Virus record (IMG/VR): IMGVR_UViG_2778261448_000009
Location: 1 to 35,006 of that record
DNA: 35,006 bases
Origin: a virus
Lineage: Duplodnaviria > Heunggongvirae > Uroviricota > Caudoviricetes
Strand: one strand, 5' to 3'
Part shown: in pieces, positions 1,026 through 26,771 of the stretch
Position numbering within the stretch: the stretch's first letter is position 1
How the letters are laid out: every line of letters begins with the position of its first letter
Notes under the pieces: model-generated
Seen by the model: the letters and a program-made list of their open reading frames with translations, nothing else
Database searches by the model: none
Told to the model about the DNA's origin: nothing
Made by a program: the position numbers and the translations under genes

Positions 1026-1056
1026 AAGCCATCATATAATTCTCAGTGAAAGGTTA

Positions 1057-1239: not shown

Positions 1240-1702
1240 CTCGAATCCTCCTACAATGTGGATTAATGATTTCTTAAAAAAGAGCGTTAACCGCTCACTA
1301 TTATTTATATGGGGATTGTATTTTATTTTTCAACCCCTCACATTTATCTCTTATATATGTATTTATAACAGAGATATGTTAAAATGTTATTCAGATGTTA
1401 TCAGACGTGTTAAATGTGTTAAACCGCAGCACGAATTGCTAAAGCGGAGAGCACGAATTAACCAAATTGATGTATATTCAATCAATTTAGAAAAAGGCAT
1501 AGCACTTTTTGCTAAAGCGGTGAGCATTAATTGAGCTATGAATTGTAAAGATTTGTTACAAGATTTTCTCTCAGATCCAAATCTTCACAGACATATAACA
1601 ATTTAACACGGTGATAACAATAGGAAGGAAAATCGGTAAATTTTCACTTTCAATACAAATATTATAACATATTTATCTCTAATTGTCAAGTGTAGCACCG
1701 AT

Positions 1703-1751
1703 CCTACACAGTGTCAACAAAGGATTTTCAAACCTACACTAGCCCTACACT
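1703..1751. repeat. CCTACAC repeats (3 copies) with a GTGTAG/CTACAC dyad
   Basis: CCTACAC at about 1703, 1733 and 1744; dyad AGTGTAG-caccgatc-CTACACA at about 1690-1712. Confidence 0.5.
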
Positions 1752-1758
1752 ATGAAAA

Positions 1759-1933
1759 TTGCCCCTGAATTTTGCCCCTGAACCAAAATCCCCTAGATTT
1801 CACTATCCCATTTTTGCCCCTGAAACCTACTATTTTTGCCCCTGAAAATCTAATTTTTGCCCCTGAAATTTGCCCCCGAAAAGGATTGGTGAGAAAAACT
1901 CTTTATAAAACATTAACTTAGTGAGGGGCAAAA
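1759..1933. repeat. iteron array: six direct copies of TTGCCCC(T/C)GAA plus one inverted near-copy
   Basis: Copies start at 1759, 1772, 1814, 1836, 1857 and 1870 (spacings 13, 42, 22, 21, 13 bp); a degenerate copy TCCCCTAGA at about 1790; inverted copy GAGGGGCAAAA at 1923-1933. No ORF overlaps. Confidence 0.8.
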
Positions 1934-2064
1934 CGGGGAATCGGGCGTGCATAGATATTATATAACACATTCGCTACGCTCATGTGTAAAACCAAAAACA
2001 ACAAATAACCAAAAAGATATTAGGAGGGCTTTGCCCGACTGCGCGAAGCGCCAACCAATTGCTT

Positions 2065-2304
2065 CTAGTAACAACTAATTTAAACTAGATGATACTAGAT
2101 GGTCTTAGAAGGAATTAACTAGTTTGCTCGCTCGCTTCGCTCACTCTCAAACGTCTGCGACGCCACTGCGTGGCATCGAGAATCACTTCTGAAAGGATTT
2201 TCTTGAAAGGGATTTTAAACTAGTTACTAACTGATTCTAGAAAGATAGTAATAATCACTTTGAAGATAATAGTAGTTAACTGGTTACTAGATGATTCTAG
2301 ATCA
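2065..2304. repeat. CTAG-rich repeat cluster (8 CTAG in about 240 bp) with direct repeats ACTAGATGAT and TGATTCTAGA, interleaved with GC-rich dyads
   Basis: CTAG at 2065, 2085, 2095, 2119, 2220, 2237, 2287 and 2297; ACTAGATGAT at 2084 and 2286; TGATTCTAGA at 2232 and 2292; GCGAAGCG (2045) inverted as CGCTTCGC (2133); GCCACtgcGTGGC at about 2162-2174. Confidence 0.75.
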
Positions 2305-2330
2305 CTTTAATGATCATGAAAGGTATTGGT

Positions 2331-2359
2331 ATCCCTTCGGGATTGCAACCTTCGGTTGC
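2331..2359 (+). other. two adjacent stem-loops with UUCG tetraloops (candidate RNA structural element in the leader of the 2562 gene)
   Basis: ATCCC-TTCG-GGGAT at 2331-2343 and GCAACC-TTCG-GGTTGC at 2345-2359; no U-run follows, so it is not a classical terminator. Confidence 0.45.
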
Positions 2360-2561
2360 TAAATTGCTTCCGGATTATTATTTCTCCAAAAGAAAGATTC
2401 TTATATTCTAAAGATACTTCTTCGTTTTGATGATGATTTAATCAAAATCTATGAAGGAGGCGAAGCCGACTGAATACCAATTCCTTTCAAATTAGACAAA
2501 AATTTCTCGTTATAAATAATAGTGAACTTACTTTGATTCACTTTTTTAGAGGATTTCCACT

Positions 2562-3011
2562 ATGATCAATACTAAAACTCCTTTCATTCTTCTGGGTCTG
2601 AACCATGATGATAATCTGGCTATGATGCATGTTTTCGCTAATCGTGGTTATAACATCATTCGTCATTCCGAAGACTCCAATTTCTCAACTGCTTTCTATG
2701 CTCTTAAACGTAATGGTCGCCCTACGGTGATCGTAGACTGCTTTACTGATGAAGGTCGTGAACAATACAACAACATTCCGGCAATTATTGTTCGTGATGA
2801 CCTGCCGTTTGATGTTCGTGAATATGACGTTGATTTAGGCTCTTACTATGGGATCGCCGATCTTGACCAGATTATGGCTGATTATGGTAAACAACCCGCT
2901 CAGGAAGCCCCAGAACACGATGAACAAGACGAAGATGACGACTACACACCAATCTGTTTCTCTTCTCACGGTGGCTTCTACGGTTACGATGAAGGCTTAG
3001 ATATGCTGTAA
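2562..3011 (+). CDS. hypothetical strongly acidic protein, 149 aa (candidate early anti-restriction or DNA-mimic protein, speculative)
   Basis: GAGG-type RBS before the ATG; I count about 29 D/E against 10 K/R, with a C-terminal EAPEHDEQDEDDDY cluster; first ORF downstream of the 1.3 kb noncoding region. Confidence 0.6.
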   Translation: MINTKTPFILLGLNHDDNLAMMHVFANRGYNIIRHSEDSNFSTAFYALKRNGRPTVIVDCFTDEGREQYNNIPAIIVRDDLPFDVREYDVDLGSYYGIADLDQIMADYGKQPAQEAPEHDEQDEDDDYTPICFSSHGGFYGYDEGLDML

Positions 3012-3046
3012 TTTAGGTCAACCCTTTGGCGTCTTGTCAAGGGGTA

Positions 3047-3075
3047 TTGACAAAATTTTCTGACTTTTTTATGAT
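3047..3075 (+). promoter_or_regulatory. sigma70-like promoter: TTGACA, 17-bp spacer, TATGAT
   Basis: Exact -35 hexamer at 3047-3052 and near-consensus -10 at 3070-3075; further TTGACA/TTGTCA boxes at 3034 and 3084; lies upstream of the 3132 gene. Confidence 0.5.
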
Positions 3076-3131
3076 TATCGCACTTGACAACTTTGAACCT
3101 ATTTGACCTAGATTTGTAAAGAGGATGTAAC

Positions 3132-3464
3132 ATGAAAGAATTTACCATCACTAAATCCCTGTATGACTGGACTGTTAAAATCTCCGGCAAAACCGTTTCT
3201 GTAAGCCCTAGCCATGTAGAAAATGATTGGGGCGTATCCCGTGAAACTATCTCCCGTAGTATGCATGTTCCGTTTGATCTGATGTCCTTAACTGGTATTC
3301 ATGCAATGCTGGAAGTTCGCGAACAATTCGAAGCTGGTAATCACAATGCGACTCCAGTTAACAATCACCTTCTTACTAATGAAGAACGTGAAATCATCGA
3401 AAACTGGCGTTATGAATATGCGATTCCTTATTATGAAGAAGATCAGGTAGAAATCGATTGGTAA
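3132..3464 (+). CDS. hypothetical acidic protein, 110 aa, with an HTH-like segment (GVSRETISRSM); weak candidate for a small terminase or regulator
   Basis: RBS AGAGGA before the ATG; TAA stop; no recognisable family by eye. Confidence 0.5.
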   Translation: MKEFTITKSLYDWTVKISGKTVSVSPSHVENDWGVSRETISRSMHVPFDLMSLTGIHAMLEVREQFEAGNHNATPVNNHLLTNEEREIIENWRYEYAIPYYEEDQVEIDW

Positions 3465-3565: not shown

Positions 3566-4414
3566 ATGAATACTGTTACTACTATGAATACTGCTGTTAA
3601 AACTGCTTCCGTGTCTCTGGTTGTTGATAACACCAAACCGCTGACCATGTCTACTTTGCAGATCGCGGAATTAACCGGAAAGAATCATAAAGATGTTATG
3701 CGTGATTTTCGTAATATGGTTGATTCGCTTGAAAAGGGTAGCAAACTGGTCGGAGGAGATGAGCGCAATTTTGCGCCCATCGGTTTTTATAAAGAAACGA
3801 CTTATAAAGATTCTCTGAATCGTAATAAACCGATGTATGAACTGGATGAAGATCTCTGTAATACTCTGGTTATGGGATACGATGCACCGCTTCGCTTCAA
3901 AATTGCTAAAGAATGGCGTTTGATGAAAGAAGGTAAAGCTAATGTTCCGGTTAATCCATATGAACACTTTGAAGAAACAGACTGGATCGAACTGGCGTTA
4001 AAGAAAACTCGCGAAAACAAACAACTGATTGAACTTCATGTTCGCAAATCCGTAGATAGCCATTCTATGACACGTCTGTTAGGCGCTAAAAAGGGCGCTA
4101 CGAAGGTTAAAGAAGCACTGACGGCCTTGCGTACTGCTGGCTACATTGAGCGCGTCTATGATGAAAATAACAAGCCGTGTGGGTATGTTGCTAATGACTC
4201 TTCTCTGTCTTTCTGCCGCATGAATGCTCACTACCAACTTGAGTTTACTGTTGATGTTCTTCCTGTGTTGGTTGAATTGGGCATTTTGGAAGAAGAACAG
4301 AAAGCAACTCTTAAACTACCGCAGCCAAATAACACTATTCTGATTCAAAACAAAGCTGCTAAACAGATTCGTGAATCAGGTAACGTAATTTCCCTTGTTG
4401 ATTTTGGGATCTGA
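3566..4414 (+). CDS. Rha-family phage regulatory protein, 282 aa
   Basis: N-terminal segment LTMSTLQIAELTGKNHKDVMRDFRNM matches the signature I recall for the Rha (Phage_pRha) family; RBS AAGGGG before the ATG; TGA stop. Confidence 0.65.
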   Translation: MNTVTTMNTAVKTASVSLVVDNTKPLTMSTLQIAELTGKNHKDVMRDFRNMVDSLEKGSKLVGGDERNFAPIGFYKETTYKDSLNRNKPMYELDEDLCNTLVMGYDAPLRFKIAKEWRLMKEGKANVPVNPYEHFEETDWIELALKKTRENKQLIELHVRKSVDSHSMTRLLGAKKGATKVKEALTALRTAGYIERVYDENNKPCGYVANDSSLSFCRMNAHYQLEFTVDVLPVLVELGILEEEQKATLKLPQPNNTILIQNKAAKQIRESGNVISLVDFGI

Positions 4415-4462: not shown

Positions 4463-4568
4463 TCCAGATTTGGATTTCTAGAAAGAATCAACCACTTAGA
4501 TAGATACGCTGAACTTTAAGCACATCCCCTCAGTTTTGAGGGCATCTATAGATCAGTCCAAATCTGGA
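4463..4568. repeat. perfect 12-bp inverted repeats TCCAGATTTGGA / TCCAAATCTGGA enclosing an 82-bp segment with an internal hairpin
   Basis: Arms at 4463-4474 and 4557-4568; internal hairpin CCCTCA-GTTT-TGAGGG at about 4528-4543; the element lies between two convergent terminators. Confidence 0.7.
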
Positions 4569-4610
4569 CTCAACTTAGAAATGAGCGCAGTTTTGCGCCG
4601 ATTGTTTTAC

Positions 4611-4638
4611 ATACAAAAAAGCCACTCCGAAGAGTGGC
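4611..4638 (-). terminator. rho-independent terminator for the minus-strand genes, UUCG loop
   Basis: Minus strand reads GCCACTC-TTCG-GAGTGGC followed by TTTTTT. Confidence 0.65.
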
Positions 4639-4653
4639 AAAGAGAATCAAAAC

Positions 4654-4887
4654 TCAAAAACCTGTTGCTTCTACGATCTGACCATCACCGATCTGAACAT
4701 AGAATTTAATGTCTAACTTCTTCATATTCTTATAGAATTGGGCGATTGAGATCCCATGTTCACTAAGAATCTGTTCTTTCGCTTCCTTACCACGATCCGC
4801 TGTATAGTAAGCGTAGGCAATATCAGCCATCTGTTCAGCGTTAAAACGGCAAGGACGACCGCGAGTAGCTTTAGTAGTCATAGTCAT
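4654..4887 (-). CDS. small putative DNA-binding protein, 77 aa
   Basis: Complete ORF ending in TGA; N-terminal TRGRPCRF and an HTH-like ISIAQFYKNMKKLDI segment. Confidence 0.5.
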   Translation of the reverse strand: MTMTTKATRGRPCRFNAEQMADIAYAYYTADRGKEAKEQILSEHGISIAQFYKNMKKLDIKFYVQIGDGQIVEATGF

Positions 4888-4915
4888 TTCTCCAAATTAA
4901 AGTGAATGTTCACCT

Positions 4916-5521
4916 TTATTTAGAGGACTTACATTTTATCGGAAAAAGTTCTCCATCGTCAATACTCATAAAGAACTCTACCTTAATCCCGTACTTCCTC
5001 AGCCGTGAATAATATGTACCCCGACTAATATCAACCTTGCGAAGCACTTCGAAGAACCCTGTAGGATCGTTGTAATAGTGGCTATATTTCACGTTAGCGA
5101 GTTCAACGAATAGTTCCCTTGTATCACCATAGCCTTTCTTGAAAGCCTCGTTACGATAGCGTGTAATTGCGTGATTCAATCTCTTCTGTTTCAACACTTC
5201 TCGGATCGGTGTCCACTGCAAACGATAGATAGGACCGTCATCCACTCGATAATAACGCTTGATATCAAAATCAAACCAATCTCGGACTCTCCGAAACTCT
5301 GTATGTGATGTTCTATGCTTCTTAAAGAAGTTGTGAACGTCTGTATAACCATTATCGCGGTAAAACTCTATTAAAATCTCTTTCGCTTCCTCACGACTAA
5401 AGCCAGATGTTGTGTAGTCGGTTTTTAAATGCTTATGCTTAACTGGCAAACGATATTCATGATCGGTACAACAAGACAAGGCTAATTCTACTTCATCTCT
5501 TTGTTGCTGATTAATTAGCAT
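4916..5521 (-). CDS. hypothetical basic protein, 201 aa, with HTH-like segments
   Basis: Complete ORF with TAA stop; segments such as [14 protein letters not shown] resemble the HTH of the 60-aa protein at 1057-1239; function unknown. Confidence 0.5.
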
Positions 5522-9645: not shown

Positions 9646-11658
9646 ATGCTTAAATTTCGCCGCGATCTTAACGGTTACGGTGGAGTTATTAACGAAGGGC
9701 ATAACGATCAATACGAGTTTGAAATTGCTTTCTCAAGTACACAGCCTTATCAGCGCCAATTTTGGGATGAGCAAAATCAAGAAATGGTGGTATTAGATGA
9801 AATTCTGGTACATACACCGGAAGCGGTTGATCTGTCTCGTCTGAATAATAACGCTCCGTTGCTGTTCAATCATAATTTCGATAATCATATTGGTGTCGTT
9901 TGTAACGCTCGAATCGATGCGGATAACGTAGGTCGTGCTCTGGTTAGATTCTCTAAGCATGGCACTTTGGCTAATGATATTCGCAATAAAGTCATTGAAG
10001 GTACGATGGAAAAAATTTCTGTCGGTTATGACATTAAAGAATATCACATCGACTACACCAAAGGACAACTGATTGTTACTAAGTGGGCACCCTATGAACT
10101 CTCATTTGTCACCGTTCCCGCAGACGATACGGTCGGTTTAAATCGCTCTCTAAATACTATCACAGTTAATTTGGAGGCTAAACGCGATATGACTAAAGAA
10201 CAAATTGAAGAAATCAAAGAAGAACAAGAATCCGCTCAGGTTGAAGAAACTCCGGTAGAAGAAAATAAAGAACCGGAAGTTGAAGAAACTCAAGAGCGCC
10301 AAGTTGAAGAGAATAAAGAAGATGAAAATCTCGAAGACGGAAAAGACGCTAAACATCCTGAAAGTGTTGATGATGATAGTTCAACTGTTCGGGAAACAGA
10401 AGAAGTAAAAGAAGAACGTGAAGCTGCTCCGGTTGAAGAAGAAAAAATCGAGGAAGTGGCTGAACGTTCCGAAGAAGACGAATTAGAAATTCGCGAAATT
10501 GCACGCGAGTTAAATATTAACGAAGACGATGAAGAATTTAAACGCGCATTGGCAAATAAAGAAATTACGCCGGAAGCATTCCGCACTAAGGCACTAAATA
10601 AAATCGCTACTGCTCAACGTAACAACGAACAACAAATTAAGGACTCTAAAATGGAAAAAACTTTTGACCTGAACAACGTAATTCGCTCTCTGGTAGATGG
10701 TGCTGCTCTGGGCGCTCATGAAGCTGAATATTCCGCTATGGCTGCTGGTGCTGCAATGCAGCGTGGTCGTGCTGCTCGCGGTGGCTCTGTATTCGTTCCG
10801 GCTGCTGCTATGCGTGCTGCTTCTGCTGGTAACACCAAAGCCGACCTGACCGCTATCACTGACGAAAAACTGATGACTGAATCCTACATCGAAATGCTGA
10901 TGCCGGAATCTGTTCTGGGTCGTCTGGGTGTGACTGTTTACAGTGGCTTGAACTCCCCGACCGCTATTCCAAAAATGACTAAATCCAGCGTTGACGCTTT
11001 CGGCTTCGTTGATGAAAACGGTGCTGCACCGGAAAGCAAAGCTGAATTTGCGAACGTGAAACTGTCTCCGAAAACTTTTGCTGGTGGCAACCCGATCAGC
11101 CGTCAGTCGCTGAAAACCGTTCCGGGCATCGCTACCCTGATCACTGATCACATTAACAAAGCTGTTCGCATCAAACTGGAACAACTGATTCTGTCTGATA
11201 AAGCTAACGACCGTGGTCCGGCTGGTCTGGTTAAGCAACTGGTAGACGCTAGCCGCGTTACCAAGAAAGCTGCTTTCTCTTACAAAGACTTCCTGAAAGA
11301 AATTGCAGCACTGACCGACGCTGGCGTTCCTGCTCAGGCGATCAAGTTTGCGATGAGCGGTGCAACTGCTTCTGAACTGGAATCTACCCTGAAAGATAAC
11401 GGCGTTTCCGGTTATATCATCGAAAACGGCAAACTGGCTGGTTACGAAGTAGTTACTTCTGGCGTTATCCCGGCAGACCACATCGTTCTGGGTGACTTCT
11501 CCGGTATTACTATCGGTGAGTGGGGAGGTCTGGAACTCGACATGGATCTAACTACATATAGGGATCGTGGTGCGGTAGTGCCTCGTATCTTTGTAGATTT
11601 GGACTACGTTGTAGCACAGCCGGAAGCTCTGAAAGTTCTTCACATCTCCGCTGAATGA
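9646..11658 (+). CDS. prohead protease (HK97 gp4-like) - acidic scaffold - major capsid protein, single 670-aa ORF
   Basis: N-terminal LLFNHNFDNHIG, ISVGY and YELSFVTVPA resemble HK97 protease motifs ALFNHD, SFAF and FDVSPVTYPA as I recall them. Residues about 185-300 are E-rich and repetitive. The C-terminal 330 aa have capsid-like composition. TGA stop. Confidence 0.7.
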   Translation: MLKFRRDLNGYGGVINEGHNDQYEFEIAFSSTQPYQRQFWDEQNQEMVVLDEILVHTPEAVDLSRLNNNAPLLFNHNFDNHIGVVCNARIDADNVGRALVRFSKHGTLANDIRNKVIEGTMEKISVGYDIKEYHIDYTKGQLIVTKWAPYELSFVTVPADDTVGLNRSLNTITVNLEAKRDMTKEQIEEIKEEQESAQVEETPVEENKEPEVEETQERQVEENKEDENLEDGKDAKHPESVDDDSSTVRETEEVKEEREAAPVEEEKIEEVAERSEEDELEIREIARELNINEDDEEFKRALANKEITPEAFRTKALNKIATAQRNNEQQIKDSKMEKTFDLNNVIRSLVDGAALGAHEAEYSAMAAGAAMQRGRAARGGSVFVPAAAMRAASAGNTKADLTAITDEKLMTESYIEMLMPESVLGRLGVTVYSGLNSPTAIPKMTKSSVDAFGFVDENGAAPESKAEFANVKLSPKTFAGGNPISRQSLKTVPGIATLITDHINKAVRIKLEQLILSDKANDRGPAGLVKQLVDASRVTKKAAFSYKDFLKEIAALTDAGVPAQAIKFAMSGATASELESTLKDNGVSGYIIENGKLAGYEVVTSGVIPADHIVLGDFSGITIGEWGGLELDMDLTTYRDRGAVVPRIFVDLDYVVAQPEALKVLHISAE

Positions 11659-12513: not shown

Positions 12514-13347
12514 ATGAATATTACACAAGATAACTTAGACATTTTCACGGGGTCACATGTTGTCGTTTCCGTGTCTGATATGGTTGATAACCAGCCGGAC
12601 TTCTTCGATCCCAGCTTTAGCCCGATTGATAACGTGGCATCATTCCCGACGATCACCGAATCCACCGAGATAGAAACTCTTGAGGAATATGATCATGATG
12701 CTACTGGTAAACTTGCCGGATACCGCAAATTAGAACCGACTACGCTTGTTTTAAACCGTGTTCTTGACGATGAACATCAAGCAATGTTGATGAAAGCGGT
12801 AGAGGATAAAACACCTTTACGCTTCCGTATGTTCTATGTTGTGAACTCTGGCTATAGTGCTGCTAACACTGGTTACTATGTCATCTATGACGCTTATGTC
12901 ACATCACACAAAACCCGTGGTAGTGATAACAAAGCTGTAACACTGGAATTTAAACTTGAACCAGATGGCGGGATTTTGGATCGCGGTATTGCAACCGAGG
13001 GTCGTCTGCTCCGTCAGGGCGATATGGGCGTTGGTGCAGGAATTAGCCCGTTCACTGGTCCTACCGATAGCGAAGTATTAGCGGGTAACAGATTTGTAAC
13101 TTACAAGGGAACTGCTAGCGGTAATCCATACTCAGCTGACACATCATTAATTCACCTTCAAGCTAATGAGCATGGCGCATGGCAATTAACCTGTAATACT
13201 TCTGGCGCACCGCGTTTACGTGTCCGAAATATTCAGGAAAACGGTCGTTCTGAATGGATCAAGGTATATTCCACCAATGAGAAACCGACACCTAGCGAAA
13301 TTGGCGCAGTGGCTAAGACTGACCGGATCGATTTCGGCGAATACTAA
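12514..13347 (+). CDS. major-tail-protein (gpV-like) paralog with an extra C-terminal domain, 277 aa
   Basis: N-terminal DIFTG motif shared with the 157-aa gene at 17022; DDEHQAMLMKAVEDKTPLRFRMF resembles lambda gpV [23 protein letters not shown] as I recall it; C-terminal EKPTPSEIGAVAK recurs in the fibre. Confidence 0.5.
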   Translation: MNITQDNLDIFTGSHVVVSVSDMVDNQPDFFDPSFSPIDNVASFPTITESTEIETLEEYDHDATGKLAGYRKLEPTTLVLNRVLDDEHQAMLMKAVEDKTPLRFRMFYVVNSGYSAANTGYYVIYDAYVTSHKTRGSDNKAVTLEFKLEPDGGILDRGIATEGRLLRQGDMGVGAGISPFTGPTDSEVLAGNRFVTYKGTASGNPYSADTSLIHLQANEHGAWQLTCNTSGAPRLRVRNIQENGRSEWIKVYSTNEKPTPSEIGAVAKTDRIDFGEY

Positions 13348-13428: not shown

Positions 13429-16400
13429 ATGCAATCAATCCAATTTAAACGCACACAGACGGCTGGTAAAAAGCCGACGCCGGAACAATTATCACAGGGT
13501 GAAATCGCCTTACAGTTGGCGGATCATGTGATTTACACCAAAGACAAAAATAATAACGTAGTCCAAATTAGTGTTTCTCCAGAAAAACACGCTGAACTGA
13601 ATACGAAAGTAGACACCAACAAGGTCAATACAGATAAAGTCATTTCAGCAAATAAAACCGAAGCCGCTAATAATCTGGCTAGTGCTAAAGCTGAACTGAA
13701 TCAGACTATCACTTCTACCCGTGATACTCTCAATGCTTCAATCACTGCTGGCGATACCGCAGCCAACAAACGAATTGATGCTTTGACTACCACAGTAGGT
13801 AACAATAAAACCGAAGCGGCTAACGCTCTGGCGGCTGCTAAGACTGAACTGAATCAGACTATTACTTCAACCCGCGATACTATCAACGCGACAATTAACA
13901 AGAACAAGACAGATATTAATGCGCGAGTTGATCAGACGAATACCAACGTTACCAACTTAACGAATACTGTCGCAGCAAATAAATCAGCAATAGAAAAGAC
14001 GGTAGCGGATAATAAGAAAGATGCGGACACGAAGATCACCAATCTTACTAGTACGGTCTCTGCGAATAAGACGGCCATTGAAAGAACTGTTGCAAATAAC
14101 AAGGCCAGTGCCGATGCCGCAATTGCCGCAGCTAATCAGCGAATTGATTCGATTGAAGGTAGTGCCGATGCTGCTTACATCAAGAAGAATACCAACACTT
14201 ACCATCACGGCTATCTGTTAACCAAAACAGCTAACTATTTGGAAGACCAGACAGCGAGAGATCTTAACTACTTTGGTGCTTTCCGTACCAATGGTCAAGA
14301 TGGACTCATGGATCTAACTCTTAACGTTCCTCACTCTGCCGGCAAAGCGCACGGTCGCGGATTTACTTTCCGTTATGCGTCTGGTGGATCTCGTGTTGAA
14401 ACCTATGGTTTTGATAGAGAAGGACAGAAGAACTTTAGCTATAAGATGTATCACGAAGGTGATAAGCCGACTCCTGGCGAGATTGGTGCATACACCAAAG
14501 CCGAAGTTGATAAGATGTTTGTTAAAAACGTCGTTATGTCTGTTCCCAATTCTAGCGAAAACGTATCTGCATATTTCAAATTGGCAACCGCAACAATTCC
14601 ACAAAACGGGCGTAGTGTGTTTTTCCGTATTCATGGTGGTAATGGTTACAACGTTACGGCATATGACCAAGTTGATGTAGTAGAAATTCTTCTCCGTAGT
14701 GGTAACGATAGACCTAAAGGTCTTAACGTAATTGCATACCGTAGAAATACAAACAAAGATTTTGAGGTATTTGCTGTCAATACTTCCGGTGATAACTATG
14801 ATATCTACGTGAAATATCAGCGTTATACCGATAACGTTATTGTCGAATATGGGAAATCTGTTTATGTAAGTTTGACGGTTTATGATACGCCGGAAGCCAC
14901 GTTAATTAAACCTTCCGTTGGTGTTATCGGTGGTCGCAACGTAACTCTTTTTAACACAGAAAATAAACGTGGTGTGTTGAGTTTTGACGATAACACACAA
15001 AATAGTTATGATATTGTTCACTTGAGTAATGATAGGGGTACTGGTCGGAAATATATTCGTAAATTCCGTAGCAACTATAACGAAATGATCTGGCATGAGA
15101 CGGTTCAAGGTTCTACTTATCGACTCGCCACGGGTAGTACAGATTCTCAGGAGATTCTATCCGTTGAATCTAGTAGCTCTATTGCTGGGACTCATAAAGG
15201 TAATATTCTTTCTGGTCGAATGATGTTGGGTGGCGGTAGTAATGTTATTACCTTGCGGCGTCCTGCTGGTCAATCCAACCATATTGCGTTTCAAGATAAT
15301 CGGACTGGAGATATTACCCGTCAAGGGTGGATCGGTTATGGTAATGCTGATACTAACGTTTTTGAATGGTATAGTGATGTAGGTGGTACTTCTATTCGTC
15401 ACCACATAGACGGACAGATCGAATTTCAGACAGGTAACACAAAACGAGTTTATACTAACGCTCAATTCATCTCAATGAATAGCGACGCCTACCGCATGAT
15501 CTACGGTAATTATGGTGCATTCTGGCGTAATGACGGCAATAAAGTTTATCTTCTTTCTACTGCCGAAAATGATAAATTGGGCGGATGGAATGGAAACAGA
15601 CCGTTCATTTACGATTTGACTAACGGTAAAGTTACTTTAGGCGGTGATGGTAACGAAGGTGCATTAGTTCTTGAAAGAGATAGCCGTGCTGCCCGTTTTA
15701 GCAACAATGTATTCTTAGAAAAAGGACTGCTTACTTTCTCTGCTGGTGGAAATCAGTCGATGGATTCTTTTACGATTAACCATTGGGGGAATAGTAATGC
15801 CAATCGATATAACGTTTTGCAATTCCAGGACACTAGCGGAACTCACTTTACTACAGAACGTAACGGTACTGGTGGCTTACTTGCTCATTTCCGAGGGGAT
15901 TTAACTACCGAAGGAAAATTAACGTGGGGCAAAAATACAGCTACTTCTAGCTTTAATATCCGTGCGTGGGGTGCTGATGCTCGTAAACAAGTATTCGAAT
16001 GTGCGGACGAAAGCGGTTGGCACTGGTACACACAACGACCGGGCGGTCCGGGTACTGAATTAATCGAGTTTGCCATCAACGGTACTGTTAAACCTAAAGC
16101 AATTCACACTGGCGGTAATATCACGCTTAACGGTGCTGATATTGAGTTTCGTCGCAGTGGCAATAAGCATTTGTGGTTTAGAGATCCAAATGGCTTAGAA
16201 TTGGGTCTGTTGTACTGCGATGATGCTGGCGTTATGCGTATGCGCGGTGAGAAACAAACCGAAGTCTGGAAATTCGGCGGTAAGATGATTCACCTTGAAA
16301 CGGGCACTGTATCCGGTGGCGGTAATGGTCTTATTCGTGGTAGCGTTGCTGGTGGTAGTTGGGCTAGCTGGCGTGATCGTGCTTCTGGTATTCAGGTCGA

Positions 16401-16965
16401 TTGTCAACAATCAACCGATTCCGCTCATAACGTATGGAAAGCAACCCATCAAGGTAAATATCATATCGCAGCAATGGGTGTACATGTTCCTAGCGGTACT
16501 ATCGGTAACGCTACAGTTAAACTTCATGTTCATGACGCTGGTTTTGACTTTAACGCTGCTGGTGACTTTACCGCAGGTCGTAACGGTTCGTTTAACGATG
16601 TTTACATTCGCTCTGACTCCCGTTTGAAGATTAACAAGGAAGAATTACAGGACGGTGCATTAGAGAAAGTAAACTCCCTGAAAGTATACTCTTACGATAA
16701 AGTTAAATCTCTTTCCGATGACACAGTGATTAAACGCGAAGTAGGTATTATTGCTCAGGATCTGGAAAAAGTATTACCGGAAGCAGTAGGTATTCAATCC
16801 ACCGAAGATCCAGAACATCCAGAAGCAATCAAGACTATTTCTAACTCTGCTGTCAATGCTTTAATCATCAAAGCAATGCAGGAAATGACCGCTAAGTTTG
16901 ATGCTATGGCTAAAGAACTTGCCGAAACTAAAGCTGAATTAGCCGAACTGAAAGCAACTAAATAA
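13429..16965 (+). CDS. side tail fibre, 1178 aa, with C-terminal intramolecular chaperone (peptidase S74-like) domain
   Basis: N-terminus MQSIQFKRTQTAGKKPTPEQLSQGEIALQLADHVIY; tandem about 50-aa repeats (NKTEAAN-LA-AK-ELNQTITSTRDT) at nt about 13650-13900; C-terminal SDSRLKINKEELQDG...VGIIAQDLEKVLPEAV followed by a coiled coil, as in self-cleaving fibre chaperone domains. Confidence 0.75.
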   Translation: MQSIQFKRTQTAGKKPTPEQLSQGEIALQLADHVIYTKDKNNNVVQISVSPEKHAELNTKVDTNKVNTDKVISANKTEAANNLASAKAELNQTITSTRDTLNASITAGDTAANKRIDALTTTVGNNKTEAANALAAAKTELNQTITSTRDTINATINKNKTDINARVDQTNTNVTNLTNTVAANKSAIEKTVADNKKDADTKITNLTSTVSANKTAIERTVANNKASADAAIAAANQRIDSIEGSADAAYIKKNTNTYHHGYLLTKTANYLEDQTARDLNYFGAFRTNGQDGLMDLTLNVPHSAGKAHGRGFTFRYASGGSRVETYGFDREGQKNFSYKMYHEGDKPTPGEIGAYTKAEVDKMFVKNVVMSVPNSSENVSAYFKLATATIPQNGRSVFFRIHGGNGYNVTAYDQVDVVEILLRSGNDRPKGLNVIAYRRNTNKDFEVFAVNTSGDNYDIYVKYQRYTDNVIVEYGKSVYVSLTVYDTPEATLIKPSVGVIGGRNVTLFNTENKRGVLSFDDNTQNSYDIVHLSNDRGTGRKYIRKFRSNYNEMIWHETVQGSTYRLATGSTDSQEILSVESSSSIAGTHKGNILSGRMMLGGGSNVITLRRPAGQSNHIAFQDNRTGDITRQGWIGYGNADTNVFEWYSDVGGTSIRHHIDGQIEFQTGNTKRVYTNAQFISMNSDAYRMIYGNYGAFWRNDGNKVYLLSTAENDKLGGWNGNRPFIYDLTNGKVTLGGDGNEGALVLERDSRAARFSNNVFLEKGLLTFSAGGNQSMDSFTINHWGNSNANRYNVLQFQDTSGTHFTTERNGTGGLLAHFRGDLTTEGKLTWGKNTATSSFNIRAWGADARKQVFECADESGWHWYTQRPGGPGTELIEFAINGTVKPKAIHTGGNITLNGADIEFRRSGNKHLWFRDPNGLELGLLYCDDAGVMRMRGEKQTEVWKFGGKMIHLETGTVSGGGNGLIRGSVAGGSWASWRDRASGIQVDCQQSTDSAHNVWKATHQGKYHIAAMGVHVPSGTIGNATVKLHVHDAGFDFNAAGDFTAGRNGSFNDVYIRSDSRLKINKEELQDGALEKVNSLKVYSYDKVKSLSDDTVIKREVGIIAQDLEKVLPEAVGIQSTEDPEHPEAIKTISNSAVNALIIKAMQEMTAKFDAMAKELAETKAELAELKATK

Positions 16966-17021: not shown

Positions 17022-17495
17022 ATGTCTCAACAATTCAAAGATATTTTTACTGGTGGTTTGGTAAGTCTGTTCTATCACGCTGATACCACTAACACCGATC
17101 TTGCTGATGAAGCATACGAAGAAATTAAAGAGTGTGCTGGTTTTCCTGAAACTGGTATCGAGCGCGGTACTGTAGAAGTTAAATCCTTCTCTTCTCAGTA
17201 TAACCGTAAACTGGTAGGGAAGCTGAACGTTCCTGATCTGACTCTGACCGTTAACTACATCCCAGGCGATGCGGTACATGAAAAACTGATCAAAGCTGCC
17301 GAAGACGGTACTCGTATTCAGATTAAAGTAGAATATTACGTTGACGCAGCAAAACAGACTGGTATTCGCACCGCTTTCAACGGCTTCATTTCTAAAGTTG
17401 CTATGAACGGTGGCGATGAAGAAGTTGTAACCAAAGAGTTTACCTTTGCTGTTGATGGTGCTCCGCTGAAACAGCAAATCTTCACTGCCGGATGA
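17022..17495 (+). CDS. major tail tube protein, gpV N-domain-like, 157 aa
   Basis: DLTLTVNYIPGD, EDGTRIQIKVEY, FNGFISKVA and TKEFTFAV parallel lambda gpV [32 protein letters not shown] and TRTVKVTNV as I recall them; RBS AAGGGGTAATT; strong terminator downstream; TGA stop. Confidence 0.65.
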   Translation: MSQQFKDIFTGGLVSLFYHADTTNTDLADEAYEEIKECAGFPETGIERGTVEVKSFSSQYNRKLVGKLNVPDLTLTVNYIPGDAVHEKLIKAAEDGTRIQIKVEYYVDAAKQTGIRTAFNGFISKVAMNGGDEEVVTKEFTFAVDGAPLKQQIFTAG

Positions 17496-17663: not shown

Positions 17664-18170
17664 ATGGCGAATGTCGTTAATAAGCCTGGCTGGGTCGGGT
17701 CATCTGCTGTTTCTGTAACTGGTCAACGATGGATGAGCGCAGCAATGAACGCATTAAAGGTTAGTCGCCCAGCTAACATGAGTGCGATGTGTGGTCGTGG
17801 TATGGATACGGTTGTAGCTACTGCTGCGTGGACTACTTCATTGGGTAATAACTGGGGTGTAACTGCTTCAAACTATCCAGTAACTGACATGCGCGGTAAA
17901 GGATCTATGGAGAACCCCGAAAACGTGGGCGTAGGGCGTCTGATTGGCGTTATCGTTGGTCAATTCAATGGTGGTACTCCTACTATGGCTGTATATCTCC
18001 AGAACGGTAGAGCGGGGAATATAACCGTTAATTTGGGTGGTGCTGCTGTCACTGTTCCTTATAACAGTATGCAAAGTGGTTTTCATTACTATTGGTTAAG
18101 CAATCCTCCGGCTGCTTTCCTAACAAATATTAAGAAGGCTGGCACTAAGCAGACTTTGAAAATCTCTTAA
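17664..18170 (+). CDS. hypothetical structural protein, 168 aa
   Basis: RBS GGAG before the ATG; sits between the tube and chaperone genes; Gly/Thr/Val-rich, beta-rich composition; no family recognised. Confidence 0.4.
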   Translation: MANVVNKPGWVGSSAVSVTGQRWMSAAMNALKVSRPANMSAMCGRGMDTVVATAAWTTSLGNNWGVTASNYPVTDMRGKGSMENPENVGVGRLIGVIVGQFNGGTPTMAVYLQNGRAGNITVNLGGAAVTVPYNSMQSGFHYYWLSNPPAAFLTNIKKAGTKQTLKIS

Positions 18171-22575: not shown

Positions 22576-22995
22576 ATGCTAAAAACTAGGCTTATCACCG
22601 ATTACATCAATTCTTTAATAGGTCAGGAGTTCGTTCAAGGTGAGAATGATTGCAATCTAATTGCATGTAAGATCATCGATATTCTCGCTGGTACTGACCT
22701 ATATAATTCTCTTTATAAAAAATATTCAACTAAAGAAGAAGGCTTGAAAATCTGCAAAGAATTAAGCGGGTATTCAAATATCCTTCAACCAATTAAGAAA
22801 CATTTCAAATTAGTCACTGATGATTTACAGGACGGCGACTTACTGGTCACAGCCCACAAATTAGGAAACCGTAATTATTATTCCGTAGTTCCTCATTATT
22901 CCGGTTATGGCCTCGTTGAAGAAGATGGTATCTGGATGACCATTCCTGTTTCAGACATTGACTATGAACAAGTTTATAGATTCGGGGGTGAATAA
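22576..22995 (+). CDS. tail tip assembly protein, NlpC/P60-like (lambda gpK C-terminal-domain-like), about 139 aa
   Basis: GENDCNLIAC and DLQDGDLLV parallel lambda gpK GVTDCYTL and AQPGDVLLC as I recall them; GGAGG 8 nt before the ATG at 22576, which is in frame with the longer track ORF 22420-22995. Confidence 0.5.
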   Translation: MLKTRLITDYINSLIGQEFVQGENDCNLIACKIIDILAGTDLYNSLYKKYSTKEEGLKICKELSGYSNILQPIKKHFKLVTDDLQDGDLLVTAHKLGNRNYYSVVPHYSGYGLVEEDGIWMTIPVSDIDYEQVYRFGGE

Positions 22996-25900
22996 TGGGA
23001 TTTGAAGTATTGGTAGGCGCGGTTATTGCTGGTGCTTCGGCGGGGATGGCGGCAGCCGCAACATTTTCGGTTATGACCGCAGTCGCTATCGGTATGGCTG
23101 CTGGTGCAATGACCTTGATCGCTTCCACTGTAGGCGCACCAAAAACACCGAAAGTACAAAGCCCGGATAATGCGGTGACACTAGGAACATCAAACGATCC
23201 TAAGACAGTATTACCCGTTCTTTTTGGTACTACCCGCACGGGTGCAATCTGCGTTTATAAGGCAATTTCCAAGCAAGAAAACAATAAGTTAGTGCAAATC
23301 TTCGCAATTGCCGAGGGTGAAATCGACCATTACAAAGCACTGTTTATCGATAACAAAAATGTTCTTGTTGGTAAGAACATGACGATCCGTGATGGTGTAC
23401 TGGACAAAGGCAACATTAAAGAAGAATATCGGAAAGTCTTAGAAGTTGAGTTCCGCACTGGTAAGAATCCTAACACCGCTTTGTCACTGGCAAAACGTCA
23501 TTTAGGATCAGACTGGAACGACAACTACAAAGGCAATGGTATTGCAACCATGTGTATTGTTTTACGCCGTGATGATAAATCTCTTGCTGCTGGTGTTGAT
23601 ATTCTCCAGCCAAATAGCCAGGTAGCGGTAGACGTTTGCGGCCTTAAAATTCGTAACCTTGAAACCAATGCTATTGAGGCTAGCACTAACGGCGTGGATC
23701 AGATTTTCCACTACCTAACAAATGAAAAATATGGCTTATCCGTACCAATTGAAAACATCAACGTTGATTCATTCCTGAAAGTACGTAAACAAGTACGCCA
23801 GATGGACCTACATTCAAACGGGGCATGTGATCCGAACGCCAGCTTTAAAGAGAACTTGACTAGCCTTATGCAGACTTTCGGCGGGGTGATGTTCGAATCC
23901 TTTGGACGTATTACCCTGAAACTGGATGCTCCTGATATTGTTAAGCATACCTTCAATGAAGACAATATTATGATGGGGAAAGTATCACTGAAAACAGGTG
24001 GCACTAACGGTTATTTCAATACCATTAACGCGATGTATCAGGAACCATCAATCGACTATTCCGAGCAAATGCTACGTTATCCGGCTGATGCTGAAAACGA
24101 TGCTACTATTCGTCAAGATGGTCGAATTATCGCTAAAGATATTGAATATCGTTTTGTTAAGTCTAAAGACCAGATTGATAAACTTGCGAGCATTGAACGA
24201 AATAAATCTCGTATCACTCAGGTTATCAGCTTTATGACTACTGACGCATTCACTGCCGAAGTTTGGGACGTTATCAGCGTAACCTATGATGAATTGAAGC
24301 TGAATAATTCCTTATGGCGTATTACTGCAATTGATCGCTCGATTGATTCTGGTATTGCTGGGATGATGACTATCACCGCCACAGAATATAATTCTCAGGT
24401 TTATACTGACCTGAACTATGCGGCAACTCCAGACAATAGACCAAGTGGTTTACCGGATTCAATGACAGTACAGAAGCCTACTAATTTCAGGATTAAGGCA
24501 ACTGGTGAGACGATTTACGGTAAAAACGTTACTTTGACATGGGATGCACCGGAAGATTTTAACCGTTATGGTTTCCAGATTGATTACCGTGTAAGTGGAT
24601 CGCCTAACTGGATTAAGCTGGGACAGACTTCACAGCAAATTTTCAGTGTCAATGCACTGGCTAAAGATCGCTCTTATGATTACCGAGTTTGTGCTTTCGG
24701 TATCATCGCTCGATCCGATTGGGTAGAACTGATTAACCAGAATCCTACTGTTACCTATGAATTGCCGACTCCGGTTATTCGAATCAAAAATCAGGGTAGC
24801 ACGCCAGGAACTTTCGAAGGTAATGATCTGATTATCGAATGGGAAAATCAGCAACAATTAGATGTTGAGATCAACGGTGAAACTAACAAGTTTAGTGACC
24901 TGTTTGAAGCATACATTATCAAGGTGACTAACAAGGCTGGTAAGTCTATTCAGTACCGTACCCGCGATCCTGAATCATGGACTTATACGCTTGATATGAA
25001 CCAGTTTAACGGCCTTTCGCGTCAACTGACGGTAGAAGTATCGGCTAAGGGCTATAACAACTCAGAGAGCGCCCCAGCGCGTTTAGTGGCTATCAACCCA
25101 CAACATAAGCCAATGAAAGGTTTTAGTGCGCGTGGTGGCTTTAATAGTGTGTTTGTTAGCTGGGCAGATGACGTAGAACATGATTATGCAGGGTCAATCA
25201 TCCAGTATGCAACCGATAACACTTTCTCCGATGCAAGGGCAGTAAGCACGAATAGTGTTAGCCATACTTCCTTTGATATTGCTGACGGTGATTATTATAT
25301 CCGTGGTGCTCACTACGATATTTTCGGTATGGATGATGCTGTTTGGTCTGAACCGTATTTCATGCAAATGAAATCTACCATTAGCTGGGACGATCAGGAC
25401 AAAGAAGCACTGGAAGACCTGATTGGTTTACAAGACCGCTTAGATGAAACTATCGCGGATGCTATTGCTCAAGCTGGCGCTAATGCCGATGCTAAAATTG
25501 ATGCAATGCATAAGCAAATCACTACCGAAACAGGGCAGACGGTCCAAGCCTCAGCCAATACCTTAAAGAGTCTGATTGCTACCAGCGAGCAAGCTAGCTC
25601 CACTAAGATTGATCAGGTTAAAGCTGAACTGAAAGGCGATATTAAGTCCGAAGTCAGCGCATCTGCTACTACCCTGAAACAAGCAATTGCTACCAGTGAG
25701 GCAGCAAGCGCAAGCAAGATTGATCAAGTTCGGGTAGAAATGGATGGCAAGATTGCTGGTGTGAATCAGGAAGCAGATGTAAAAATCGATGCTTTGAAGG
25801 GAACCATTAACAGCAAATATAATCTGGCGGTTAATGCAGATGGTCGCGTGGCTGGTATTCACATGAGCGCAACCAACGATCCGGCACAACCGACGAGAAT

Positions 25901-26771
25901 CATCTTTAATGCTGATAAAATCGCGGTAGCTCCACAGAACGGATCGGAAGTATGCCCGTTTGGTATCGAAGGTAACAAGGTTTATCTCGATAATGCGATG
26001 ATTCGTAATGCTGCAATTGGTACAGCCCAGATTAATGATGCGGCGATTACCACGGCTAAAATCGGCAATGCTGCAATTAACAGCGCGAAGATTCAGGACG
26101 GGGCAATCACTAACGCGAAGATCGTAAACGGTGCAATTGATAACGCTAAAATCGGTAACTATATCCAGTCTTCCAACTGGAACGGATCGACCGGATGGCA
26201 TATCAACAAGAACGGGTCCGCTACGTTCATGAATGCAACCGTTAAAGGTAATATCACGGCTGATTCTGGTACTCTGAACAACGTCACGATTAACTCTAGC
26301 TGTGTTATTAAGGGTATGCTCGAAGCTACTCAGGTTAAGGGTGATTTCGTTAAGGTGATTGGACGTAAGTTCCCGCATCGTGATGTTAACGTTGATAATG
26401 GTTATGCTGGTTATCCACAGGGAACGGTCACTGTTCGCGTTGAAGATGATCACAAGTTCGATCGTCAAATCGTTATTCCGGCAATTAGTTTTGGTGGATT
26501 GCGAGCGCGTGAAGGGTCGAACAATAATACGTTTTACGACACCTGTCGCCTGATTGTTCGTAAGAATGGGTCAGAGTTGTATAATAGGGCGTATGGCGGT
26601 AATACTGGTCTTTACTCAGGTGTTATTGATATGCCAGCGGGTAAAGGTGCTGTGACCTTGACCTTTGAAGTGCAATCAAGCGCAATCAACAACTGGACGC
26701 CTAGCACATGGATCAGTGATTTAACGGTAATGGTAACTAAAAAAGCCACTACTGGTATTACTGTTTCTTAA
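22995..26771 (+). CDS. central tail fibre / host specificity protein (lambda gpJ-like) with a gpI-C-terminal-like N-terminal segment, 1258 aa
   Basis: N-terminal Gly/Ala-rich hydrophobic segment plus TVLPVLFGTTRTGAICVY resembles the lambda gpI C-terminus (GNVLPVLYGEMRVGSRVV). C-terminal VTVRVEDDHKFDRQIVIPA, IDMPAGKGAVTLTFEV and LTVMVTKKATTGITVS parallel lambda J VTVTDDHPFDRQIVVLP, VDMPAGRGNVILTFTL and VQVMVIKKQALGISVV. Internal ATSEQASSTKIDQV and NAAI/KIGN repeats. Confidence 0.8.
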   Translation: MGFEVLVGAVIAGASAGMAAAATFSVMTAVAIGMAAGAMTLIASTVGAPKTPKVQSPDNAVTLGTSNDPKTVLPVLFGTTRTGAICVYKAISKQENNKLVQIFAIAEGEIDHYKALFIDNKNVLVGKNMTIRDGVLDKGNIKEEYRKVLEVEFRTGKNPNTALSLAKRHLGSDWNDNYKGNGIATMCIVLRRDDKSLAAGVDILQPNSQVAVDVCGLKIRNLETNAIEASTNGVDQIFHYLTNEKYGLSVPIENINVDSFLKVRKQVRQMDLHSNGACDPNASFKENLTSLMQTFGGVMFESFGRITLKLDAPDIVKHTFNEDNIMMGKVSLKTGGTNGYFNTINAMYQEPSIDYSEQMLRYPADAENDATIRQDGRIIAKDIEYRFVKSKDQIDKLASIERNKSRITQVISFMTTDAFTAEVWDVISVTYDELKLNNSLWRITAIDRSIDSGIAGMMTITATEYNSQVYTDLNYAATPDNRPSGLPDSMTVQKPTNFRIKATGETIYGKNVTLTWDAPEDFNRYGFQIDYRVSGSPNWIKLGQTSQQIFSVNALAKDRSYDYRVCAFGIIARSDWVELINQNPTVTYELPTPVIRIKNQGSTPGTFEGNDLIIEWENQQQLDVEINGETNKFSDLFEAYIIKVTNKAGKSIQYRTRDPESWTYTLDMNQFNGLSRQLTVEVSAKGYNNSESAPARLVAINPQHKPMKGFSARGGFNSVFVSWADDVEHDYAGSIIQYATDNTFSDARAVSTNSVSHTSFDIADGDYYIRGAHYDIFGMDDAVWSEPYFMQMKSTISWDDQDKEALEDLIGLQDRLDETIADAIAQAGANADAKIDAMHKQITTETGQTVQASANTLKSLIATSEQASSTKIDQVKAELKGDIKSEVSASATTLKQAIATSEAASASKIDQVRVEMDGKIAGVNQEADVKIDALKGTINSKYNLAVNADGRVAGIHMSATNDPAQPTRIIFNADKIAVAPQNGSEVCPFGIEGNKVYLDNAMIRNAAIGTAQINDAAITTAKIGNAAINSAKIQDGAITNAKIVNGAIDNAKIGNYIQSSNWNGSTGWHINKNGSATFMNATVKGNITADSGTLNNVTINSSCVIKGMLEATQVKGDFVKVIGRKFPHRDVNVDNGYAGYPQGTVTVRVEDDHKFDRQIVIPAISFGGLRAREGSNNNTFYDTCRLIVRKNGSELYNRAYGGNTGLYSGVIDMPAGKGAVTLTFEVQSSAINNWTPSTWISDLTVMVTKKATTGITVS

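Follow-up and report, generated by a model that had tools for sequence, protein, structure and literature searches.

A homologue of the T-even distal fibre subunit gp37 in a temperate Escherichia coli prophage with siphovirus-type tail genes

The window analysed here is a stretch of 35,006 nucleotides (nt) of the IMG/VR virus record IMGVR_UViG_2778261448_000009 (Caudoviricetes). Its fibre gene is the open reading frame (ORF) at positions 13429-16965 of the plus strand, which begins with ATG and encodes 1178 amino acids (aa) with a predicted precursor mass of 129.0 kDa. Judged from its sequence, this ORF is a full-length homologue of gp37, the distal subunit of the long tail fibre in T4-like myophages of the RB49 type (Krischvirus). 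The reading put forward is that a temperate E. coli prophage with a non-contractile tail carries a gp37-type distal fibre subunit, and a probability of roughly 0.7 is given to it, the whole of the mechanism proposed below included. The mechanism is a known one and it is the setting that is new. What was observed comprises homologies, a catalytic motif, the order of the genes and the distribution of fibre cassettes among related genomes. An initial annotation of the same DNA had placed at these coordinates a side fibre with tandem repeats and a self-cleaving end, a description which the analysis supports. It had missed a protein with a Gp38_N domain, a candidate for a gp36-type adaptor, the homology to T-even gp37 in a siphovirus prophage and the family of chromosomal prophages that has fibre cassettes in common with Krischvirus.

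According to the proposed mechanism, three fibre chains would trimerise with the aid of a C-terminal chaperone (aa 1062-1178), which would then remove itself after R1061 by an autoproteolysis dependent on Ser1062 and Lys1067. The new C-terminus, ending in NDVYIR, would form a flat tip on which one 168-aa Gp38_N protein could dock via two conserved tryptophans, the all-beta head of this protein being the probable receptor binder. At the opposite end, aa 1-51 of the fibre would join the gp36-type C-terminus of a 277-aa paralogue of the tail tube protein, and in this way the fibre would be anchored to the tail. The rod that follows (aa 53-258), which is absent from myophage gp37, would act as a spacer by which the reach of the fibre is set and whose length varies between isolates. 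Finally, everything distal to the rod would be an exchangeable cassette shared with virulent Krischvirus phages.

The relationship with gp37 extends over almost the whole fibre outside the rod. In BLASTP comparisons with gp37 of phage Phi1, aa 262-1175 of the fibre are identical at 718 of 918 positions (78%), and aa 1-51 align with Phi1 aa 4-54 at 39% identity. At the DNA level (megablast), nt 784-3460 of the ORF match gp37 of 42 Krischvirus-type records, RB49, Phi1, ECD7 and JSE among others, with identities of 75-90% and typically of 78-82%. The complete protein matches phrog_1699, 'long tail fiber distal subunit', with an E value of 1e-141, and the N-terminal 48 residues alone match positions 6-51 of the same profile (E 4.9e-18). 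In the PDB, the fibre shaft matches the T4 gp34 structures 4uxe and 5nxh (E about 1e-15). The collar domain of the lambda side fibre Stf (PF08400, phage_tail_N) was not matched by the window fibre in the Pfam search; in the same kind of search, the fibre of the Shiga toxin (Stx) phage 75/02 stayed below the threshold, with 21.0 bits against a cutoff of 26.6.

The genes that surround the fibre are of another kind. The backbone of the window consists of a lambda-type large terminase, a portal protein, a protease-capsid fusion, a lambda-like tube protein, a tail chaperone, a tape measure protein, a Dit-like protein and a J-like tip protein, and its right part holds an M15 endolysin and a large serine recombinase. 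Genes for a sheath, gp34 and gp35 were not found in the window, and the contractile T4-like setting of gp34-gp35-gp36-gp37 is thus absent from it. The J-like tip protein (1258 aa; ORF 22995-26771) contains the domains Phage_Tail_Tip and Ig_GpJ_C. The initial annotation had expected two receptor-binding devices, and both this tip and a lateral fibre are indeed encoded. The closest phage relatives of the 670-aa fusion of a prohead protease (Peptidase_S78) with the major capsid protein (9646-11658) are only 27-43% identical, and for this reason the backbone is considered to be poorly represented among isolated phages. A megablast of the window against 50,697 phage records gave no near-DNA match except for the fibre and a patch in a uvsW gene.

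The window is part of a 121-kb draft contig of assembly GCA_002518045.1. Related DNA is found on the chromosome of 54 out of 5,426 complete E. coli genomes (about 1%), and 12 complete E. coli genomes match over at least 80% of the fibre region. The possibility that the contig is a phage-plasmid was ruled out, as it has no match in the plasmid collection. Because the related DNA is chromosomal, the plasmid collection has no match and the tail genes are of the lambda type, the window is assigned to an uncharacterised family of temperate prophages with a non-contractile tail.

Within this family three types of fibre cassette were distinguished. In type A, formed by the window and six other loci, an RB49-like fibre gene is followed by the tube gene and then by the gene of the 168-aa protein. 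In type B (loci L011-L013), a different fibre with a C-terminal Peptidase_S74 (S74) domain is followed by three ORFs of about 100 aa, and there is no Gp38_N gene. In type C (L014), an S74-ended fibre is immediately followed by a canonical gp38 of 260 aa (Gp38_N plus the GP38 head, 243 bits). The type B cassette is 93.7% identical in nt sequence to that of Krischvirus vB_EcoM_G37-3 and the type C cassette 86% identical to that of Krischvirus MIZ4, accessory genes included in both cases. At least three distal-fibre cassettes are common to the prophage family and Krischvirus phages, their nt identity being 80-94%, and in all types the myophage homology starts about 780-860 nt into the fibre gene, just after the rod. 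When the types are compared with one another, identity is 86-96% in the N-terminal domain of the 277-aa protein, 70-94% in its C-terminal domain and 72-100% in fibre aa 1-51, whereas it falls to 33-38% in the rod and to 15-58% in the body of the fibre. The three ORFs of type B (11970-12876 in L011; present also in L012 and L013) matched no Pfam or PHROG family and may be an alternative to gp38.

The C-terminal domain of the fibre had been taken from the beginning for a self-removing chaperone, and the profile search agrees with this: Peptidase_S74 (PF13884) is found at aa 1062-1120 (nt 16612-16788) with an E value of 1.3e-13 and 51.4 bits, the curated cutoff being 22. The string SDSRLKINKEELQDG begins at aa 1062 (nt 16612), from which 117 residues remain up to the C-terminus, and in ten relatives the chaperone segment measures 111-117 aa. 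The cleavage-site motif of the window fibre reads NDVYIR^SDSRLKI (^ marks the site), with S1062 and, five residues downstream, K1067. In the form NDVYIR^SD.RLK it is invariant in ten related fibres of types A, B and C and in Phi1, and it aligns with the S16 gp37 construct 6f45_A at DLNVS^SDRRIK. The last 113 residues of S16 gp37 are autocleaved at DLNVS^SDRRIKK, in related Yersinia phages DVYIR^SDGRLKI aligns with this site, and the tryptophans of the gp38 N-domain are received by a face made of the DVYIR strands (PMC7917993). Self-cleavage followed by the attachment of one gp38 per fibre has been described for S16 and RB49 (PMC7917993, PMC9569957).

What is known about the fibres of S16, T2 and RB49 is the basis on which both the cleavage and the docking of a gp38-type protein are proposed here. 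By analogy with them, autocleavage is predicted between R1061 and S1062, and its predicted products are a mature fibre of 116.1 kDa (aa 1-1061) and a chaperone of 12.9 kDa. The assignment of the Ser/Lys dyad reportedly goes back to work on endosialidases by Schulz in 2010. The self-cleaving end adds nothing new, since this is how most T-even gp37 fibres normally mature.

The gene of the candidate tip protein is located 700 nt downstream of the fibre gene, beyond the tube gene. Residues 4-42 of the 168-aa protein (17.6 kDa) match Gp38_N (PF21721) with 57.1 bits against a cutoff of 25, the protein matches phrog_1121 'tail fiber adhesin' (E 6e-33) as well as the S16 gp38 chain 6f45_D (E 1.3e-4), and W10 and W23 are invariant among 25 homologues. 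Its N-domain is identical to that of RB49 gp38 at 30 out of 42 positions (71%), RB49 being the phage whose gp37 is the closest homologue of the fibre and whose gp38 is the closest to this N-domain. The head shares 51 out of 105 residues (49%) with the adhesin of the Stx podophage 75/02. Having an RB49-like N-domain and an Stx-phage-like head, the protein is a domain chimera. The polyglycine GP38 head (PF05268), with which the gp38 of the type C locus obtains its 243 bits, had no match in the 168-aa protein, whose own head is unrelated to it. AlphaFold2 (AF2) models the head as all-beta with values of the predicted local distance difference test (pLDDT) of 90-95, and no convincing solved relative of this model was found, nor a match to any solved adhesin.

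The distribution of the gene points in the same direction as its homologies. All 7 type A loci have it, while types B and C lack it at this position, and in each case examined (types A and C, Stx 75/02, PEi26, Kosakonia 305 and RB49) a Gp38_N gene goes together with an S74-ended fibre. In the Kanagawaviruses, a short Gp38_N gene comes directly after gene 37. On the side of the fibre, GRNGSFNDVYIR of the tip is invariant and common to Phi1. By analogy with these systems, the 168-aa protein probably caps the cleaved tip of the fibre and is a probable adhesin. As a separate observation, Edwardsiella phage PEi26 (L017) has two tandem short gp38 paralogues (3836-4339 and 4495-4992) after gene 37, which suggests alternative tip proteins for one fibre.

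The gene of the 277-aa protein (12514-13347; 30.5 kDa) ends 81 nt upstream of the fibre gene. The protein is a paralogue of the 157-aa tube protein (29% identity, E 6e-15), and the fibre gene is thus flanked by two tail-tube paralogues. The 157-aa protein is 57-58% identical between type A and types B and C, compared with the 86-96% at which the N-domain of the 277-aa protein is conserved. The AF2 model of this N-domain has a pLDDT of 76-96 over aa 12-162, and Foldseek ranks structures of the lambda tail tube protein gpV first among its matches (8k36_A, E 4.9e-7, target TM score 0.63). The last 100 residues or so align with the C-terminus of Phi1 gp36 to the final residue (31% identity, E 2e-5), and P0082, a family member of 482 aa with the same tube domain, aligns with gp36 aa 229-496 (E 1e-17). 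All 16 family members in the alignment, which spans E. coli to Proteus, keep the terminal (I/V)DFGx(Y/F), one of them having L in place of F. The motif also ends the gp36 of Phi1, PEi26 and Kosakonia 305, where the gp36 gene lies directly upstream of a gene 37 whose product begins with IQFKR...GELAINL. The Pfam family of gp36 (PF03903) had no match in the 277-aa protein; it is blind to the relevant region, because Phi1 gp36 itself reaches only 21.4 against a threshold of 26, and with its N-terminal part only.

In T4-type fibres, the C-terminus of gp36 joins the N-terminus of gp37. The window contains exactly one gp36-type C-terminus and one gp37-type N-terminus, and from this sole pair, the gp36-type end and the T4-type joint an adaptor role is inferred: the 277-aa protein likely anchors the fibre to the tail by receiving its gp37-type N-terminus. 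The position that the protein would have on the tail is deduced from sequence in the same way. The pairing of a tube paralogue with a gp37-type fibre recurs, with unrelated fibre bodies, in Escherichia phage DCP80 (PQ671644, L003). Regarding this phage, its record of 141 kb is filed under Gaprivervirus (Straboviridae) and contains a siphovirus-type structural module (1-22437) syntenic with the window, of which a 698-aa fusion of tube paralogue and fibre that ends in IDFGLE is a part; its classification or its assembly looks odd.

Tandem repeats of about 50 aa, visible also in the DNA near 13652 and 13803, had been described initially, and they were found again as 51-aa units with 30 of 51 residues in common, together with a 92-nt direct repeat (13651-13742 and 13804-13895). 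The copies of this direct repeat start 153 nt (51 codons) apart and are identical at 76 of 92 positions (83%). Codon-shuffled versions of the ORF (n=20) gave only 45-49 matches in their best 92-nt in-frame window, and therefore the repeat is far beyond chance. Outside the core the units have diverged too far for Tandem Repeats Finder to report the 153-nt array; the repeat was demonstrated by pairwise extension and by the shuffle test. A second set of repeats with a period of 29 aa (about aa 163-238) had not been mentioned in the initial annotation.

The codon differences in the repeat core are 9 synonymous and 5 non-synonymous, and the longest perfect run is of 19 nt. Recent simple slippage was rejected on these grounds as the origin of the 51-aa pair, which is an old and stable duplication and, with such a short perfect run, a poor substrate for slippage. 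Exactly two copies of the unit are found in five of the seven type A fibres, and in L008 and L009 additional units of the 29-aa type replace the second one. Five type A fibres have a rod of 206 aa and two others one of 234 aa, which is a difference of about one 29-aa unit; in those fibres of types B (L011) and C that allowed its limits to be set, the rod measures 236 aa. The initial idea of variation in repeat number is therefore borne out only in part: the length of the rod differs between isolates (206 versus 234-236 aa), but the 51-aa pair that had suggested the idea is itself stable. The variation of the rod looks at least as much recombinational.

In composition the rod is rich in few residues (A 19%, T 17%, N 14%, K 9%; Pro 0, Gly 3). 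Its hydrophobic periodicity has peaks at 5.75 and 3.6 residues which are borderline against shuffles, and consequently it is called only Pro-free, Gly-poor and of low complexity, and no coiled coil is claimed. Phi1 gp37 has only about 16 residues where the fibre has the rod (about aa 52-261), and the first 792 nt of the fibre gene gave no blastn match, near or distant, in the phage collection.

Several observations weigh against the mechanism proposed, and they are considered here together with the other explanations. Concerning the tip, the fibre itself could bind the receptor through its distal shaft (aa 761-1061), S74 being only an aid for folding and the 168-aa protein a cap, a chaperone or part of another structure. 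With identities of 64-84%, the distal shaft varies more than any other part of the type A fibres. The 168-aa head, by contrast, is 93-98% identical from one type A prophage to another, unlike canonical gp38 adhesins, which are hypervariable. Besides, no clear co-variation was found between the fibre tip and the Gp38_N domain, the tube gene lies between the fibre gene and the 168-aa gene, and the head has the lack of solved relatives already mentioned. Type B fibres carry the S74 domain without any Gp38_N gene, so that S74 by itself is no sign of a gp38 partner. It should also be noted that the co-occurrence of the 168-aa gene with type A could be explained by linkage and not by function, because types B and C also have the divergent tube gene. 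Nevertheless, Gp38_N is a domain dedicated to docking at the gp37 tip and both of its tryptophans are conserved, its closest relative in RB49 gp38 matches an RB49-like tip whose invariant segment is shared with Phi1, and short Gp38_N proteins occupy the slot of gene 38 in the Kanagawaviruses. Moreover, the host range of RB49-type phages maps to gp38 (PMC9569957). Receptor binding by the shaft is thus judged unlikely. The initial annotation had treated the fibre as the receptor binder; by homology, its cleavage would expose a docking face for a separate Gp38_N protein.

Concerning the anchor, the 277-aa protein could be a decorated tube subunit like lambda gpV with its immunoglobulin-like (Ig) domain, and the fibre would then attach elsewhere, for instance at Dit/J or at a collar as in lambda or T5. 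Its architecture of tube domain plus C-terminal extension is the same as that of gpV, and the similarity of its C-domain to gp36 is modest (E 2e-5 in the pairwise comparison and E 0.005 with phrog_16472). Part of this similarity comes from a 'KPTxx(D/E)(I/V)' module common to numerous fibre proteins; the generic repeat 'KPTxxEIG' occurs at several places in gp36 and also inside the fibre, at aa 346. For the C-domain, the AF2 monomer model has a pLDDT below 50 and was left uninterpreted, and PDB sequence searches with this domain and with the fibre N-terminus gave chance matches only and no solved gp36-gp37 joint. On the other hand, the terminal motif is common to the gp36 of two T4-like genera, each encoded directly upstream of gene 37. 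In two homologues, P0082 and that of DCP80, the tube domain continues into a long gp36-like fibre which has this motif at its end, and in DCP80 a fibre with a gp37-type N-terminus comes next. In addition, the window fibre is devoid of the Stf collar domain, and no other candidate partner was found within the window, all of which makes a purely decorative role of the 277-aa protein doubtful. It is highly improbable that the locus is a decaying relic, that is, a defective prophage with fibre genes out of use. This could be thought of because insertion sequence (IS) elements are located in or beside the fibre gene of several family members; but the genes of the fibre region that were examined, beginning with a 96-aa gene ahead of the candidate adaptor and reaching as far as the first part of the tape measure gene, are intact and syntenic in the window and in the six other type A genomes. 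Furthermore, the window ORFs from terminase to J are intact, the codon differences between the repeats are mostly synonymous and the catalytic motif is invariant. Finally, for a draft contig with two separate Krischvirus-like patches it might be imagined that the assembly had joined a prophage to a contaminating T4-like phage. This was rejected, being refuted by the 12 complete, closed E. coli chromosomes in which the same arrangement is found at 82-92% identity; the identity to Krischvirus is also about 80% and not about 100%, and the junction lies inside an intact ORF.

The gp37-type fibre on a non-contractile tail, as proposed, can be compared with several known systems. It shares with the tip of the RB49-type and T2/S16-type gp37/gp38 (PDB 6F45) the N-terminal domain, the S74 chaperone, the NDVYIR^SD.RLK motif and the Gp38_N partner. 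However, those fibres belong to contractile T4-like phages and the window to a temperate siphovirus-type prophage without gp34 and gp35, in which a rod of about 200 aa follows the N-domain and the role of gp36 is apparently taken by a fusion with a tube paralogue; the partner protein lacks the polyglycine head of T-even gp38 and is encoded beyond the tube gene. With T4-type gp36, the 277-aa protein has in common the C-terminal module, the terminal IDFGx(F/Y) and a gene immediately upstream of a gp37-type gene, but its gp36-type end follows a tube domain like that of lambda gpV, and it lacks the part that binds gp35/gp34. The 168-aa protein resembles most the short adhesins with a Gp38_N domain that are found in Stx podophages (for example Shigella phage 75/02 Stx gp56) and in Kanagawavirus (gp38 of PEi26 and Kosakonia 305). 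These are likewise of 165-170 aa and combine Gp38_N with a homologous all-beta head, at identities of 45% and 32%, respectively. In both of these groups the adhesin gene comes directly after the S74-terminated fibre gene, whereas in the window the tube gene stands between them.

Among siphoviruses, T5 carries the lateral L-shaped fibre pb1, whose S74-type chaperone is removed after trimerisation and whose anchor is the p132 collar (PMC12617516, PMC11990801). Both pb1 and the window fibre are lateral fibres complementing a central receptor-binding tip, with an S74-type chaperone and a separate anchor protein (a candidate one in the window), although no sequence similarity between them was found in the PDB search. 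In T5 the receptor-binding tip is within pb1 and there is no gp38-type cap, in contrast with the separate Gp38_N protein of the window, and the anchor p132 is an Ig-like dodecameric collar, compared with a candidate which is a tube paralogue with a gp36-type end. In Ur-lambda, Stf forms its own collar, while T5 uses p132 (PMC12617516). Ur-lambda Stf is the classic case of shared ancestry between a siphovirus side fibre and T-even gp37 (PMC12617516, which cites Montag 1989). Stf and the window fibre are both side fibres on lambda-like tails with a J-type central fibre. Nevertheless, Stf has an N-terminal dodecameric collar (PF08400-type), a separate Tfa chaperone and no S74, unlike the window fibre with its gp37-type N-terminus, its S74 domain and no PF08400.

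If the proposed anchoring is true, it would be a third mode for the side fibres of siphoviruses, besides the self-collar of lambda Stf and the p132 collar of T5. That fibres are mosaic between T-even and lambdoid phages has been recognised from the late 1980s on, and for this reason no new category is proposed. What is new is a T-even distal half-fibre on a temperate siphovirus-type prophage, a candidate adaptor, a short chimeric Gp38_N tip protein and the repeated sharing of cassettes with Krischvirus. In a more general formulation, enterobacterial prophages would mount T-even distal half-fibres on a non-contractile tail via a tube paralogue with a gp36-mimicking C-terminus, and would be plug-compatible acceptors and reservoirs of gp37/gp38 cassettes exchanged with Krischvirus; for this, the chances appear evenly balanced.

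Some consequences are of practical importance. In about 1% of the complete E. coli genomes, a prophage would carry a lateral fibre that can be exchanged, one cassette at a time, for the host-range module of virulent RB49-type phages. The Krischvirus phages that share these cassettes are virulent and are used as candidates for therapy. This would be a route by which therapeutic or environmental T4-like phages could gain receptor specificities from the lysogens they infect, and prophages from phages. A tube paralogue with a gp36-type end, paired with a gp37-type N-terminus, would moreover be a design rule for grafting T-even fibres onto a siphovirus chassis, and the head of the short Gp38_N protein is a fold which, as a model, is confident and structurally unmatched. 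The features described so far are collected in Table 1.

Table 1. Parts of the fibre and of the associated proteins in the window, with the evidence for each
Feature	Position	Strand	Evidence or remark
gp37-type N-terminal domain (IQFKRT...GEIALQLAD...), fibre aa 1-51	13429..13581	+	phrog_1699 and identity to Phi1; 72-100% conserved across all cassette types of the prophage family
Ala/Thr/Asn/Lys-rich repeat rod, fibre aa 53-258; insertion relative to Krischvirus gp37	13585..14202	+	Rod DNA unmatched in the phage collection
Two tandem 51-aa units, aa 67-117 and 118-168	13627..13932	+	Conserved cores form the 92-nt direct repeat
Two tandem 29-aa units, aa 174-202 and 203-231 (second repeat type)	13948..14121	+	Period-29 self-similarity; unit scan in window and relatives
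gp37-homologous shaft and tip, fibre aa 262-1061, last strand NDVYIR	14212..16611	+	78% aa identity to Phi1 gp37 aa 71-871 and beyond
Pfam Gp34_trimer within the fibre shaft, aa 630-728	15316-15612	+	E 2.5e-23
Predicted intramolecular chaperone, aa 1062-1178 (117 aa, 12.9 kDa) and stop: Peptidase_S74 core, then helical tail	16612..16965	+	Pfam S74
Short Gp38_N protein of 168 aa: docking domain aa 4-42 and all-beta head aa 48-168	17664..18170	+	Pfam Gp38_N, phrog_1121
Tail-tube-fold N-terminal domain, aa 1-163 of the 277-aa protein	12514..13002	+	29% identity to the 157-aa tube protein; phrog_158 major tail protein
gp36-type C-terminal domain, aa 164-277 of the 277-aa protein, ending ...KPTPSEIGAVAKTDRIDFGEY-stop	13003..13347	+	Proposed docking end for the fibre
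Tail tube protein of 157 aa, between the fibre gene and the 168-aa gene	17022..17495	+	phrog_158 E 1.9e-21; Pfam Phage_TTP_11 at threshold; annotated 'phage tail tube protein' in relatives

Other observations concern the rest of the window and the fibre loci of the relatives. A complete UvsW-type helicase (UvsW_N, ResIII and Helicase_C) is encoded on the minus strand at 28811-30310, and the part at about 28934-30300 is 84-85% identical in nt sequence to the uvsW of Krischvirus, forming a second Krischvirus-like patch which is not linked to the fibre. Two proteins with a CapR homology domain (30301-30870, minus strand, and 30913-32199) adjoin the large serine recombinase (32273-33967, minus strand), and this region is presumably the regulatory and integration end of the prophage. 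Finally, IS elements (IS3 family, ISKpn26, IS2 and IS903B) are found in or beside the fibre gene in L010 (11413-12560), L013 (11063-12291), H102, H108 and H114, and the fibre locus seems to be either a frequent target of IS insertion or a site of decay.

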